DNA of 64,000 nt, taken from Escherichia coli. GTDB lineage: Bacteria > Pseudomonadota > Gammaproteobacteria > Enterobacterales > Enterobacteriaceae. The translations under genes and the position numbers were made by a program. The stretch is taken from the NCBI RefSeq assembly GCF_003334405.1, contig NZ_QOWM01000009.1. One strand, 5' to 3'. Below are positions 42,368-49,772 of the stretch, piece after piece. How positions within the stretch are numbered: the first letter of the stretch is position 1; every line of letters begins with the position of its first letter. The notes beneath the pieces are model-generated. The model made no database searches. It had not been told where the DNA came from and saw only the letters and a list, made by a program, of their open reading frames with translations.

Positions 42368-43273
42368 ATGCGTCGAACGTTTATCAAAAAAGAAGGCGTC
42401 GTCATCACGACGCTGGCCCGTTATTTGTTGGGTGAAAAGTGCGGTAATCGATTGAAAACCATAGATGAGCTGGCAAATGAATGCCGTTCATCCGTTGGCC
42501 TGACGCAGGCCGCGTTGAAAACGCTGGAATCAAGCGGAGCGATACGGATTGAACGCCGTGGGCGCAATGGCAGTTATCTGGTCGAGATGGATAACAAAGC
42601 ATTGCTGACTCATGTGGATATCAACAACGTGGTATGTGCAATGCCCTTGCCCTATACCCGTTTGTACGAAGGCCTGGCGAGCGGATTGAAAGCCCAGTTT
42701 GATGGCATTCCTTTTTACTATGCGCACATGCGTGGCGCGGATATTCGCGTGGAGTGTCTGCTTAATGGCGTGTATGACATGGCGGTGGTTTCGCGACTAG
42801 CGGCGGAAAGTTATCTCACGCAAAAAGGCTTATGCCTCGCGCTGGAGTTGGGGCCGCACACCTACGTTGGCGAGCACCAGTTGATTTGCCGTAAAGGCGA
42901 GTCCGCAAACGTGAAGCGCGTGGGGCTGGATAACCGTTCGGCGGATCAGAAAATCATGACCGATGTTTTTTTTGGCGGTAGTGATGTGGAACGAGTCGAT
43001 CTCTCTTATCACGAGAGTTTACAACGCATTGTTAAAGGCGATGTCGATGCGGTGATCTGGAACGTGGTGGCGGAAAACGAACTGACCATGCTGGGATTAG
43101 AGGCGACGCCGCTCACAGACGATCCGCGATTTTTACAGGCCACCGAAGCCGTGGTCCTGACGCGAGTCGATGATTACCCAATGCAACAACTGCTGCGTGC
43201 CGTTGTAGATAAACACGCCCTGCTCGCCCATCAACAACGGGTAGTGAGTGGGGAACAGGAACCGAGTTATTAA
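42368..43273 (+). CDS. yhfZ: Putative DNA-binding transcriptional regulator YhfZ
   Basis: 301-aa ORF, first gene of an eight-gene same-strand cluster; N-terminal HTH-like region. Confidence 0.88.
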   Translation: MRRTFIKKEGVVITTLARYLLGEKCGNRLKTIDELANECRSSVGLTQAALKTLESSGAIRIERRGRNGSYLVEMDNKALLTHVDINNVVCAMPLPYTRLYEGLASGLKAQFDGIPFYYAHMRGADIRVECLLNGVYDMAVVSRLAAESYLTQKGLCLALELGPHTYVGEHQLICRKGESANVKRVGLDNRSADQKIMTDVFFGGSDVERVDLSYHESLQRIVKGDVDAVIWNVVAENELTMLGLEATPLTDDPRFLQATEAVVLTRVDDYPMQQLLRAVVDKHALLAHQQRVVSGEQEPSY

Positions 43274-43289
43274 ACGAAAGGCATCTGAT

Positions 43290-43652
43290 ATGGAAACCAG
43301 ACTCAACCTGCTTTGCGAGGCAGGCGTTATTGATAAGGACATCTGCAAAGGCATGATGCAGGTCGTCAACGTACTGGAAACAGAGTGCCATCTGCCGGTG
43401 CGCAGTGAGCAAGGAACGATGGCGATGACACATATGGCGAGTGCACTGATGCGCAGTCGCCGTGGTGAAGAAATAGAGCCGCTGGATAACGAGTTGCTGG
43501 CAGAACTGGCGCAATCCAGCCACTGGCAAGCCGTTGTGCAATTGCATCAGGTGTTGTTGAAGGAATTCGCACTGGAAGTTAACCCGTGTGAAGAAGGCTA
43601 TTTGCTGGCCAACCTTTATGGATTATGGATGGCTGCTAACGAAGAGGTTTGA
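43290..43652 (+). CDS. yhfY: Uncharacterized PRD-domain-like protein YhfY
   Basis: 120-aa product METRLNLLCEAGVIDKDICKG...; start 14 codons inside the track ORF. Confidence 0.82.
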   Translation: METRLNLLCEAGVIDKDICKGMMQVVNVLETECHLPVRSEQGTMAMTHMASALMRSRRGEEIEPLDNELLAELAQSSHWQAVVQLHQVLLKEFALEVNPCEEGYLLANLYGLWMAANEEV

Positions 43653-43730
43653 AGCTCCCGACAAATCCACGTCGCACAACCTAAATATTCAAAAAAATGA
43701 ATATTTAAGGAACAGAAACGAGGCAACAAG

Positions 43731-47359: not shown

Positions 47360-47370
47360 AAGGCACGACT

Positions 47371-48675
47371 ATGGATCTGTATATTCAGATTATCGTGGTG
47401 GCGTGCCTGACGGGTATGACATCGCTTCTGGCGCATCGCTCGGCGGCTGTTTTTCATGACGGCATCCGCCCGATCCTGCCGCAACTGATTGAAGGCTATA
47501 TGAACCGTCGCGAGGCGGGGAGTATCGCTTTTGGTCTGAGCATTGGTTTTGTGGCCTCGGTGGGGATCTCTTTTACCCTGAAAACCGGGCTGCTCAACGC
47601 ATGGTTACTCTTTCTTCCTACCGATATCCTCGGCGTCCTGGCGATAAACAGCCTGATGGCGTTTGGTCTTGGCGCTATCTGGGGCGTGTTGATCCTTACT
47701 TGCCTGTTGCCAGTAAACCAGCTGCTGACCGCGCTGCCGGTGGATGTATTAGGTAGCCTGGGGGAATTAAGCTCGCCGGTGGTTTCAGCTTTTGCACTGT
47801 TCCCGCTGGTGGCGATTTTCTACCAGTTTGGCTGGAAGCAAAGTCTGATCGCCGCCGTGGTGGTACTGATGACCCGTGTGGTAGTCGTGCGCTATTTCCC
47901 ACATCTTAACCCTGAATCCATCGAAATCTTTATTGGCATGGTGATGCTGCTGGGGATCGCGATAACTCACGACCTGCGTCATCGTGATGAAAATGACATT
48001 GATGCCAGCGGGCTTTCGGTGTTTGAAGAACGCACGTCACGGATTATCAAAAACTTACCCTATATCGCCATCGTGGGAGCATTGATTGCCGCCGTTGCCA
48101 GCATGAAGATTTTTGCTGGCAGTGAAGTGTCGATCTTCACACTGGAGAAAGCATATTCCGCAGGCGTAACGCCGGAACAATCGCAAACGCTGATTAATCA
48201 GGCGGCTCTGGCAGAATTTATGCGCGGACTGGGGTTTGTGCCGTTGATTGCCACCACCGCGTTAGCAACGGGTGTGTATGCAGTTGCGGGCTTTACCTTT
48301 GTTTATGCGGTGGGCTATCTCTCGCCGAATCCGATGGTTGCAGCGGTATTAGGCGCAGTGGTTATTTCGGCGGAAGTCTTGCTGCTTCGTTCGATCGGCA
48401 AATGGCTGGGACGCTACCCGTCGGTGCGTAATGCGTCGGATAACATCCGTAACGCCATGAATATGCTGATGGAAGTGGCGCTGCTGGTCGGTTCGATTTT
48501 CGCAGCAATTAAGATGGCGGGTTATACCGGATTCTCTATCGCGGTTGCCATTTACTTCCTCAACGAATCCCTGGGCCGTCCGGTACAGAAAATGGCGGCA
48601 CCGGTCGTGGCAGTAATGATCACCGGTATTCTGCTGAATGTTCTTTACTGGCTTGGCCTGTTCGTTCCGGCTTAA
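47371..48675 (+). CDS. yhfT: Uncharacterized inner membrane protein YhfT (transporter-like)
   Basis: 434-aa ORF, hydrophobic throughout with roughly 10 or more predicted TM segments. Confidence 0.86.
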   Translation: MDLYIQIIVVACLTGMTSLLAHRSAAVFHDGIRPILPQLIEGYMNRREAGSIAFGLSIGFVASVGISFTLKTGLLNAWLLFLPTDILGVLAINSLMAFGLGAIWGVLILTCLLPVNQLLTALPVDVLGSLGELSSPVVSAFALFPLVAIFYQFGWKQSLIAAVVVLMTRVVVVRYFPHLNPESIEIFIGMVMLLGIAITHDLRHRDENDIDASGLSVFEERTSRIIKNLPYIAIVGALIAAVASMKIFAGSEVSIFTLEKAYSAGVTPEQSQTLINQAALAEFMRGLGFVPLIATTALATGVYAVAGFTFVYAVGYLSPNPMVAAVLGAVVISAEVLLLRSIGKWLGRYPSVRNASDNIRNAMNMLMEVALLVGSIFAAIKMAGYTGFSIAVAIYFLNESLGRPVQKMAAPVVAVMITGILLNVLYWLGLFVPA

Positions 48676-48686
48676 GGAAGGCACCT

Positions 48687-49772
48687 ATGAAGACGTTTCC
48701 TCTGCAAAGCCTGACGATTATTGAGGCGCAGCAAAAGCAGTTTGCGCTGGTGGATAGCATTTGTCGCCATTTCCCCGGCAGCGAGTTTCTTACTGGCGGT
48801 GATTTAGGCTTAACGCCAGGACTGAATCAACCGCGCGTTACCCAGCGTGTGGAACAGGTGCTGGCTGATGCATTTCACGCACAGGCTGCGGCGCTGGTGC
48901 AGGGCGCGGGGACTGGCGCGATTCGCGCCGGGCTGGCGGCTTTGCTCAAACCGGGGCAGCGTCTTCTGGTGCATGACGCGCCTGTTTACCCGACGACACG
49001 GGTTATTATTGAGCAGATGGGGCTGACGCTTATTACTGTTGATTTCAATGACCTGTCGGCACTGAAGCAGGTCGTCGACGAGCAACAACCGGATGCGGCG
49101 CTGGTGCAGCATACGCGCCAGCAGCCGCAGGACAGCTACGTGCTGGCAGATGTGCTGGCAACGTTGCGCGCGGCAGGTGTTCCAGCGTTAACCGATGACA
49201 ACTATGCGGTGATGAAGGTGGCTCGAATCGGCTGTGAATGCGGCGCGAATGTCTCGACATTTTCCTGCTTCAAGCTATTTGGGCCAGAGGGTGTTGGTGC
49301 AGTGGTCGGCGATGCTGATGTTATCAACCGTATTCGCGCCACGCTTTACTCCGGCGGTAGCCAGATCCAGGGCGCACAGGCGCTGGAAGTATTGCGTGGT
49401 CTGGTGTTTGCGCCAGTGATGCACGCGGTGCAGGCAGGGGTATCTGAACGGTTGCTGGCTTTGCTTAACGGTGGTGCGGTGCCGGAAGTGAAAAGCGCGG
49501 TGATTGCTAATGCGCAGTCGAAGGTGTTGATTGTCGAGTTTCATCAGCCGATTGCCGCCAGAGTGCTGGAAGAGGCGCAAAAGCGCGGTGCCTTGCCTTA
49601 CCCGGTGGGTGCAGAGTCGAAATATGAAATCCCGCCGCTCTTTTATCGCCTTTCCGGAACGTTTCGCCAGGCGAATCCACAATCAGAACATTGTGCGATT
49701 CGCATTAACCCGAATCGCAGCGGTGAAGAGACGGTGCTGCGGATTTTGCGTGAGAGTATTGCCAGTATTTAA
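48687..49772 (+). CDS. yhfS: Putative PLP-dependent aminotransferase-like enzyme YhfS
   Basis: 361-aa ORF, last gene of the yhfZ-yhfS cluster, followed by a REP-containing spacer. Confidence 0.85.
   Translation: MKTFPLQSLTIIEAQQKQFALVDSICRHFPGSEFLTGGDLGLTPGLNQPRVTQRVEQVLADAFHAQAAALVQGAGTGAIRAGLAALLKPGQRLLVHDAPVYPTTRVIIEQMGLTLITVDFNDLSALKQVVDEQQPDAALVQHTRQQPQDSYVLADVLATLRAAGVPALTDDNYAVMKVARIGCECGANVSTFSCFKLFGPEGVGAVVGDADVINRIRATLYSGGSQIQGAQALEVLRGLVFAPVMHAVQAGVSERLLALLNGGAVPEVKSAVIANAQSKVLIVEFHQPIAARVLEEAQKRGALPYPVGAESKYEIPPLFYRLSGTFRQANPQSEHCAIRINPNRSGEETVLRILRESIASI

Follow-up and report, generated by a model that had tools for sequence, protein, structure and literature searches.

Gene content and conservation of the yhf cluster

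The yhf cluster occupies positions 42368 to 49772 of the analyzed window, a 64-kb stretch of Escherichia coli DNA (contig NZ_QOWM01000009.1), where it lies between trpS upstream and frlR downstream, the latter on the opposite strand. Its eight plus-strand genes are yhfZ (42368-43273), encoding a regulator with a winged helix-turn-helix (wHTH; HTH_41) and a YhfZ_C sensor domain; yhfY (43290-43652), a stand-alone single-PRD protein; yhfX (43731-44894), a fold-type III pyridoxal phosphate (PLP) enzyme of the YhfX family (Pfam Ala_racemase_N plus YhfX-like_C); yhfW (44894-46120), a DeoB-like metalloenzyme (Metalloenzyme family) with the phosphomutase core of the alkaline-phosphatase superfamily; php (46117-46995), a binuclear metal hydrolase of the phosphotriesterase family (Pfam PTE); yhfU (47006-47359), a DUF2620 protein with an RpiB/LacAB fold and an invariant C52-N-T54-G loop that is an obligate neighbor of yhfT; yhfT (47371-48675), a presumed permease with a polytopic membrane topology, from the small YhfT family; and yhfS (48687-49772), an accessory fold-type I PLP enzyme (Aminotran_1_2 plus YhfS-like_C). 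An open reading frame (ORF) analysis gave the same coordinates as the RefSeq record of an E. coli chromosome with 100% identity, and they match the eight same-strand genes of an earlier sequence-only reading. The tight packing it described, apart from one gap before yhfX, was also recovered: the junctions from yhfZ through yhfS measure, in order, 16, 78, -1, -4, 10, 11, and 11 nt, and a purine-rich Shine-Dalgarno-like stretch precedes each of the eight starts. Its eight product assignments hold, with two amendments: YhfU, given there as a protein of unknown fold, is RpiB/LacAB-like, and YhfS is aminotransferase-like at the level of fold only. A mechanical ORF call starts yhfY at a GTG at 43248, overlapping yhfZ (43248-43289); the annotated ATG at 43290, with AAAGG before it, is more plausible.

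The cluster is a regular part of the species and recurs far beyond it. Positions 42000 to 50000, used as the query for comparison with 5426 complete E. coli genomes, were 100% identical to E. coli chromosomes, and at least 80% of this query was present in one place in 5060 of the genomes (93%). For comparison among species, one genome per species was scanned with a YhfU alignment, which detected relatives in 116 species; 80 loci were kept, from Enterobacterales, Vibrionaceae, and two Firmicute metagenome-assembled genomes (MAGs). This comparison of genomic context, proposed in the sequence-only reading, found the same families co-occurring in 64 to 79 of the 80 loci (yhfT in 79, php in 77, yhfU in 76, yhfX in 71, yhfZ in 69, yhfW in 67, and yhfY in 64), with yhfS in 35. 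No other family was found in more than 26 loci, the closest being enterobacterial synteny neighbors such as cysG, trpS, and nirB, and clustering of 1381 neighboring ORFs revealed no recurrent kinase, aldolase, or dehydrogenase and no extra conserved pathway gene. The genes php, yhfU, and yhfT were contiguous in nearly all loci and form a core block, around which the arrangement varies: the Vibrionaceae order is yhfZ-yhfY-php-yhfU-yhfT-yhfX-yhfW, without yhfS. All eight genes, together with a short amidase-signature-like gene, were found in Enterococcus avium and an Aerococcaceae MAG, and partial sets in the Bacillus cereus group, two Paenibacillus, and a Mycobacterium MAG. This co-variation across phyla argues strongly that the genes work as one system, with YhfT and YhfU as a two-part module. 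On balance, we lean toward regarding the yhf cluster as a conserved, substrate-inducible catabolic or salvage island, and the most reasonable interpretation is still the one first suggested in the sequence-only reading, breakdown or salvage of a small molecule that is aminated and/or phosphorylated.

Several loci carried additional genes beside the cluster. In the B. cereus group (L089:15177-19699), three consecutive ATP-grasp genes and a major facilitator superfamily transporter gene follow a PRD-DUF2620-YhfT-PTE-YhfS-YhfX block. A secreted protein of approximately 730 residues adjoins the cluster at L055:14313-16508 and at six other loci, in Photobacterium and one Enterobacter; its C terminus looks chitin-binding-like by eye, and it gave no domain match. 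Photobacterium also carries a IIC/IIA pair of the cellobiose family of the phosphotransferase system (PTS) near the cluster.

Enzymes, a presumed uptake pair, and the probable nature of the substrate

All catalytic and cofactor residues tested were intact in PHP, YhfW, YhfX, and YhfS. YhfX (PDB 4KBX) has the Ala_racemase_N barrel of fold-type III enzymes with an invariant PLP lysine, K61; its family profile matched alanine racemase at 3e-4 and D-threonine aldolase at 0.03, and it did not qualify as an alanine or ornithine racemase (Orr model, 28 bits versus a cut-off of 480). YhfW aligned with B. cereus phosphopentomutase (3M8W) at 3e-31, including D10, the GDT motif with its Thr nucleophile, DxxGH, DHGND, and HT, but its cap region aligned poorly and has diverged. 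YhfW fell below the cut-offs of the canonical deoB models (TIGR01696, 145.8 versus 341.2; PRK05362, 183.9 versus 256) and passed only PRK12383, which it matched end to end (1-408 of 408). PHP is the same protein as that in PDB 1BF6 and 4LEF; the metal ligands of the binuclear phosphotriesterase site are all present (H12, H14, E125, H158, H186, and D243), and its nearest relatives were PTE-like lactonases (1e-38) and 3PNZ (1e-33). YhfS (PDB 4J8L) has the fold-type I architecture with an invariant Schiff-base lysine, K196. Its family profile matched cystathionine gamma-synthase and methionine gamma-lyase at 1e-9 to 1e-7, and its best NCBIfam and PDB relatives were methionine gamma-lyase, cystathionine gamma-synthase, sulfhydrylases, and cysteine desulfurases, not transaminases. 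By these comparisons, YhfS resembles the gamma-lyases and desulfurases more closely than the transaminases. Assignment of YhfS as a DgaE/SelA-like lyase was supported neither by NCBIfam nor by family-profile comparison.

What these enzymes might act on is hinted at by their relatives and by their neighbors. For YhfW, YhfU, and PHP, the substrates of the nearest characterized relatives are pentose phosphates or phospho-lactones, and both PLP enzymes of the cluster require a primary amino group. A phosphomutase recurs in the clusters, and a kinase family recurs in none. In some versions, GntR/UTRA regulators stand in place of YhfZ; actinobacterial versions are flanked by amine oxidases and amino-acid permeases. 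An amidase-like gene belongs to the Firmicute versions, nagB lies inside one Vibrio cluster, and acid phosphatase genes come after yhfT in two Enterobacterales. Taken together, these hints favor a sugar acid or lactone that bears an amino group and acquires a phosphate, with an amino-acid lactone, ester, or phospho-amino acid as the main alternative. The favored compound would most likely derive from a pentose or hexose and be phosphorylated on entry or afterwards.

The alternative, by which the substrate would be not sugar-like but an amino-acid derivative (lactone, lactam, ester, or phospho- or phosphono-amino acid), deserves a fuller hearing, even if we give it well below an even chance. 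PHP would then free the amino acid, YhfX would racemize or deaminate it, YhfS would catalyze a gamma- or beta-elimination, and YhfW would serve as a side-chain phosphatase or phosphotransferase. Much in the enzyme comparisons fits such a scheme: the relatives of YhfS just named, the placement of YhfX within the racemase/D-amino-acid aldolase fold, and the PTE-like lactonases as the best-scoring solved relatives of PHP. The same can be said of the amidase-signature-like gene of the Firmicute clusters, the amino-acid permeases and amine oxidases beside the actinobacterial versions, the three ATP-grasp genes beside the B. cereus version, and the conserved charged residues of YhfT (D30, R33, D85, E335, and R360), which would suit a zwitterionic substrate. 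However, sugar and PTS systems are where PRD proteins and GntR/UTRA regulators typically occur, one Vibrio cluster includes nagB, YhfU has a sugar-phosphate isomerase fold, and YhfW has a sugar-phosphate mutase core.

Two of these hints come from gene content at individual loci. In Vibrio comitans, a bona fide nagB gene (glucosamine-6-phosphate deaminase, E=1e-130; L064:8864-9655) lies between yhfW and yhfU, the position that php occupies in the enterobacterial order yhfX-yhfW-php-yhfU-yhfT. In two Enterobacterales without yhfS, genes downstream of yhfT and on its strand encode periplasmic acid phosphatases (L047:11705-13408 and L061:11712-12527): the first locus has a class A PhoC-like gene and then an e(P4)-family gene, and the second has only an e(P4)-type 5'-nucleotidase gene of the same BLAST cluster.

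The core of the cluster beyond php is the pair formed by YhfU and YhfT. When compared with the RpiB/LacAB isomerases, YhfU was found to have an RpiB/LacAB-like fold. Its C52-x-T54-G motif aligned with C66-G-T68-G of RpiB, with the hhalign alignment confined to a 26-residue stretch around the motif (E=0.01). Its invariant Cys lies at the end of strand 3, before a Gly-rich loop and helix. For YhfT, comparison with solved folds gave no convincing match, only a weak resemblance to the DASS and TRAP carriers, and comparison with Pfam DUF4310 and DUF4311 detected no similarity. The yhfU and yhfT stop and start codons often overlap or are tightly spaced, DUF2620 adjoins YhfT down to 27% identity, and at two loci (L085 and L092) the pair occurs without other cluster families nearby. 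YhfT and YhfU are thus an obligate adjacent pair, best read as a two-part uptake module.

Such a pairing could be read more conservatively. YhfU might be a soluble enzyme that interconverts aldose and ketose phosphates like the RpiB/LacAB isomerases, and YhfT a plain secondary carrier. The two genes would then adjoin for co-expression only, and phosphate would come from a housekeeping kinase encoded elsewhere in the genome. The shared Cys-x-Thr-Gly motif, the weak sequence matches of YhfU to RpiB-like proteins, and the faint likeness of YhfT to the DASS and TRAP carriers all agree with this explanation, which we nevertheless consider unlikely. YhfU is approximately 30 residues shorter than RpiB, and only C52 and T54 of the active site are conserved; the remaining RpiB residues, Asp9/His10, His99/Asn100, and Arg133/Arg137, have no counterpart in the alignment. 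Likewise, YhfU reached no Pfam or NCBIfam RpiB model, and the pair persists without any other pathway enzyme nearby, which would be unusual for a free enzyme.

A bolder explanation ties the pair to the PTS. In it, YhfT and YhfU would be a new PTS-type group-translocating permease, in which Cys52 would take phosphate from HPr or EIIA and hand it to the entering substrate; His48 of YhfY would likewise receive phosphate, from YhfU~P or HPr~P, and YhfY would in turn control YhfZ; no kinase would be needed downstream. We rate this explanation as less likely than not. In addition to the obligate YhfU-YhfT pairing, the position of the invariant YhfU Cys, and the recurrence of a phosphomutase but not a kinase, it draws on YhfY, a stand-alone PRD protein with an invariant His present in nearly every cluster. 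This 120-residue protein matched Pfam PRD over residues 24-106 (83 of 90 model positions, E=9e-4), with H48, A52, R55, and E101 invariant in 14 orthologues from four phyla; against TIGR03582, the EF_0829/AHA_3910 PRD family, it scored 28.4 bits, short of the 69.35 cut-off. In Paenibacillus sp. BS8-2, genes for the PTS proteins HPr and Enzyme I (EI) lie directly downstream of yhfW on the same strand, and in the Mycobacterium MAG an EI gene lies 5.7 kb from the cluster. The DUF2620 part of a 245-residue Lentibacillus "antiterminator" in AFDB superposes on YhfU, and this protein appears to be a candidate PRD-DUF2620 fusion. Finally, one DUF2620 member matched Pfam Gly_rich_SFCGS over its full length (E=1.4e-5), which ties DUF2620 to the clusters of SFCGS, DUF4311, DUF4310, amidohydrolase, DgaE, and KDGP aldolase; SFCGS clusters also carry a PRD protein (TIGR03582). 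DgaE and KDGP aldolase need a 6-phosphorylated substrate.

The objections to a new permease are also substantial. The YhfU Cys follows strand 3, not strand 1 as in known EIIB families; YhfT resembles no solved EIIC; and no PTS EIIB or EIIC fold was recognized in YhfU or YhfT and no EIIA partner was found in the cluster. The fold evidence favors RpiB over EIIB, and EI adjacency was observed in two lineages only. PTS-fed, YhfU-mediated phosphorylation is plausible, but with less than even prospects. The same caution applies to its broader form, namely, that YhfU/YhfT and the related SFCGS-type modules might together be an unrecognized class of PTS-coupled phosphorylating permeases with an RpiB-like phosphocarrier and single-PRD signaling (YhfY) to a non-classical regulator, YhfZ. 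E. coli K-12 would then possess, in yhf, an orphan PTS pathway whose substrate would be an amino sugar-acid or lactone. In our estimate, this is a speculative idea.

Several Vibrionaceae have two yhfU-yhfT modules (L048/L074, L052/L053, L054/L070, and L055/L057, in Enterovibrio and Photobacterium). Enterovibrio splits the set into yhfZ-yhfY-php-yhfU with a divergent yhfT at one locus and yhfU-yhfT-yhfX-yhfW at the other, and Photobacterium lipolyticum has a full set plus a second yhfZ-php-yhfU-yhfT set approximately 12.8 kb apart on one contig. These arrangements suggest sub-functionalization of the uptake module. One distant YhfT adjoins a PNP_UDP_1 gene. Public databases hold many "fusions" of neighboring yhf genes, for example PTE+YhfT, DUF2620+YhfT, and YhfT+YhfS (P0002, P0005, P0012, P0109, and P0122; AFDB A0A0A2WJZ4), which are probably artifacts of frameshifts or gene-calling errors, and an 840-residue "yhfT" attributed to the fungus Beauveria bassiana is probably bacterial contamination.

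Proposed regulation and pathway

YhfZ scored 373.6 bits against NCBIfam YhfZ_full (cut-off, 260) and matched Pfam HTH_41 and YhfZ_C, with residues 74-301 covered by the structure of its C-terminal domain, PDB 2OZZ. It did not match the Pfam GntR wHTH (PF00392); the NCBI equivalog name is nonetheless "GntR family transcriptional regulator YhfZ." Three operator-like palindromes with a common TTCA-N6-TGAA core were identified near its gene and in the 78-nt yhfY-yhfX gap. O1, a putative YhfZ site (42318-42339; TATCTTCA-N6-TGAAGATA), directly adjoins O2 (42340-42365; TAAATATTCA-N6-TGAAAATTTA), which ends 2 nt before the yhfZ ATG, and O3 (43682-43707), in the gap, is a perfect palindrome (TAAATATTCA-N6-TGAATATTTA). 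The 11-mer TAAATATTCAA has exactly two copies in the 64-kb window, one before yhfZ and one in the gap, within O3. Among the 80 loci (1.47 Mb), there were 181 exact TTCA-N6-TGAA cores, 109 of them no more than 160 nt upstream of yhfZ (82) or yhfX (27). The core precedes yhfZ in 57 of the 69 loci that have this gene, Vibrio and Photobacterium included, and O3 is kept before yhfX in Escherichia, Citrobacter, Trabulsiella, Buttiauxella, Cedecea, Ewingella, and Yersinia.

A predicted CRP-like site lies farther upstream on the plus strand, 91 nt before the yhfZ ATG (42277-42292; TGTGAAGTGCCTCGCC, TGTGA-N6-TCGCC), within the 120-nt leader that separates the trpS terminator from yhfZ. It matches TGTGA-N6-TCACA at 8 of 10 positions; scores of at least 8/10 were found in 47 of 67 loci, compared to 5% of random 200-nt windows, and the fixed 91-nt offset recurs in most Enterobacterales and some Vibrionaceae. 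Sigma-54 consensus matches were at chance level (46 found versus 44.6 expected). Also at chance level were terminator-like matches inside the cluster (11 found versus 9.2 expected), which, together with the common strand and the short junctions, agrees with the single operon proposed in the sequence-only reading. The transcription units are, however, probably two, yhfZY and yhfXW-php-UTS, each regulated, because a conserved operator lies in the 78-nt gap and because a published operon table omits yhfZY; the paper with that table, a riboswitch scan, mentions the operon just as a neighbor. From the arrangement of these sites, we infer an autoregulated repressor, probably YhfZ, acting at the putative operators, plus catabolite activation.

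The best reading of the whole is a CRP- and YhfZ-controlled, PTS-linked catabolic island. In the pathway that we propose, YhfT would import the compound with its cytoplasmic partner YhfU, whose Cys52-x-Thr54 loop on an RpiB-like scaffold would most likely act on the incoming molecule at the membrane, either in a PTS-fed phospho-relay or as an isomerase. PHP would then open a lactone or ester, YhfW would move a phosphate group, and YhfX and, where present, YhfS would carry out PLP steps on the alpha-amino(acid) group, with epimerization or elimination followed by a lyase-type removal, so that the product could enter central metabolism. YhfZ, with its wHTH and ligand-binding domain, would repress yhfZY and yhfXW-php-UTS through promoter-overlapping TTCA-N6-TGAA operators, the CRP-like site would supply catabolite control, and the YhfY PRD, via its invariant His, may report the phosphorylation state of the PTS to the YhfZ circuit.

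Several results speak against a CRP- and YhfZ-controlled, PTS-linked island. Many Yersinia lack both yhfW and yhfS, so neither the phosphate chemistry nor the second PLP step is common to all versions. PHP scored 102.4 bits (2.6e-29) against the phospho-furanose lactonase model NF045706, far below its cut-off of 630. The Pfam PRD match of YhfY is marginal, and the second PRD His is present only in Gram-positive members, with Asn in its place in gamma-proteobacteria. On the regulatory side, a sigma-70 scan found no promoter before yhfZY or the yhfX unit and none above chance inside the cluster; the assignment of the operators to YhfZ is guilt by association; and the relatedness of the enterobacterial loci makes the DNA sites look better conserved than they are.

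A skeptic might go further and regard the E. coli cluster as a cryptic remnant, rarely or never expressed and without a current role. The sigma-70 result before both units could be taken that way, as could three putative operators that would make the cluster tightly repressible by design and a literature in which we found no reported phenotype or substrate, only incidental screen hits. We consider this very improbable, since eight intact ORFs are kept in 93% of complete E. coli genomes, catalytic residues and regulatory sites are conserved, and orthologous clusters are maintained across phyla.

Related systems, significance, and flanking elements

The yhf cluster belongs to no characterized pathway, and in design it is most like the uncharacterized SFCGS clusters. 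The latter, of the EF_0829-EF_0839 type, comprise a PRD protein, a glycine-rich SFCGS protein, DUF4312, DUF4311, DUF4310, an amidohydrolase, a DgaE-family lyase, and a KDGP aldolase. Both have a stand-alone PRD protein (the weak TIGR03582 match of YhfY), a Cys/Gly-rich soluble protein of approximately 120 amino acids beside membrane proteins, a hydrolase of the amidohydrolase superfamily, a fold-type I PLP lyase, and a gene list without a kinase. They differ in that YhfT is not DUF4310- or DUF4311-like, E. coli YhfU itself misses the SFCGS model, and YhfS is not DgaE/SelA-like; in addition, yhf has no aldolase, and only yhf includes a fold-type III PLP enzyme and a DeoB-like mutase.

Other systems share single features with yhf. 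L-Ascorbate is handled by the ula system, with the UlaA/B/C PTS and the lactonase UlaG, and the phospho-sugar lactonases of Lmo2620 and Mycoplasma belong to the PTE family. Import with phosphorylation followed by opening of a phospho-lactone would be a shared theme, and PHP falls in the same PTE family as the phospho-furanose lactonases; in contrast, UlaG differs in fold, no relationship of YhfT and YhfU to UlaA and UlaB emerged at the sensitivity tested, and PHP remains far below the lactonase cut-off. Among the salvage enzymes for nucleosides and pentose phosphates, DeoB is echoed in the catalytic core of YhfW and RpiB in the fold and Cys-x-Thr motif of YhfU; however, the YhfW cap has diverged, the shorter YhfU has none of the remaining RpiB active-site residues, and the E. 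coli cluster has no nucleoside phosphorylase. The Salmonella dga system, with the D-glucosaminate PTS DgaABCD, the ammonia-lyase DgaE, and the aldolase DgaF (PMC9529869), is a catabolic unit for an amino sugar acid, in which the PTS does the phosphorylating in place of a kinase and the phosphorylated substrate is deaminated by a fold-type I PLP enzyme. It has a canonical mannose-family PTS and a sigma-54 LevR-type activator, whereas yhf has neither (sigma-54 matches being at chance), and the enzymes of the two are not orthologous.

The sequence-only reading also remarked on the neighboring frl operon. As would be the case for yhf, the role of frl is catabolic, its substrate being an amino-sugar conjugate (fructoselysine), and the two are physically adjacent in this strain. 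However, frl is convergent on the opposite strand, has its own regulator, FrlR, shares no protein families with yhf, and is not there in 79 of the 80 species loci. A functional link to frl was rejected in view of this adjacency in just 1 of 80 loci and the absence of frl from that place in some E. coli. The frl neighborhood carries no functional signal, and the adjacency is E. coli-specific. The polymorphism itself (window 49924-54800) is seen when E. coli contigs are compared (L002 and L003 versus L004), some of which run from yhfS to yhfL to cysG without frlABCDR.

The cluster is already known, its genes having been annotated for decades, and its recognition here is correct but not new. A literature search on gene names, families, and b-numbers turned up no paper defining its function, with yhfZ and yhfW appearing only as incidental screen results, which upholds the earlier description of a known yet uncharacterized cluster; a January 2026 paper still counts yhfW among genes with uncharacterized functions. 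This is so even though four of the proteins (PHP, YhfX, YhfS, and the C-terminal domain of YhfZ) have deposited crystal structures, and yhf is one of the larger function-less gene blocks of E. coli K-12. Were the substrate named, the metabolic map of the best-studied bacterium would have one gap fewer, and the clusters in Citrobacter, Yersinia, Vibrio, Enterococcus, Bacillus, and Paenibacillus would be annotated as well. What our analyses add are testable regulatory and mechanistic hypotheses, centered on the candidate operator, the CRP-like site, YhfU Cys52, YhfY His48, and the invariant php-yhfU-yhfT core. If YhfT-YhfU were indeed a PTS-fed permease, it would be a new family in a transport system long thought fully catalogued.

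Repeats flank the cluster on both sides, though not as the pair of bacterial interspersed mosaic elements (BIMEs) first described. The downstream flank has no inverted pair of repetitive extragenic palindromic (REP) sequences. It consists of a Box C-like dispersed repeat (49796-49872; a G-rich, imperfect inverted repeat, GGGGAGAGGGTTAGGGTGAGGGG) and, between yhfS and frlR, a single REP recognized by repeat analysis (49886-49921). The former, which is probably Box C, is distinct from REP; E. coli genomes contain it at a median of 17 places, and in 3206 of 5426 of them a copy covers at least 80% of the 77-nt query. The upstream flank does contain a BIME of two inverted REPs downstream of trpS (42112-42202), with the REP tail CTTATCCGGCCTAC at 42132 on the plus strand and at 42173 on the minus strand and a weak match to Rfam naRNA4/REP325. 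Scanning Rfam at E of 1 or below returned weak REP-derived naRNA4 matches alone and no other RNA element. The GC content of the cluster is 0.535, versus 0.527 for the window, and GC and third-position GC (GC3) resemble those of the flanks, on which ground a mobile unit or horizontal transfer was rejected; the REP flanks are ordinary intergenic repeats and delimit no mobile unit. The intrinsic terminator of trpS, on the plus strand at 42225-42254 (stem GAAACCGGG-GAAA-CCCGGTTT followed by a T-run; called by the terminator scan at 42225-42246), sits past the BIME, and trpS transcripts would cross the REP pair before terminating.

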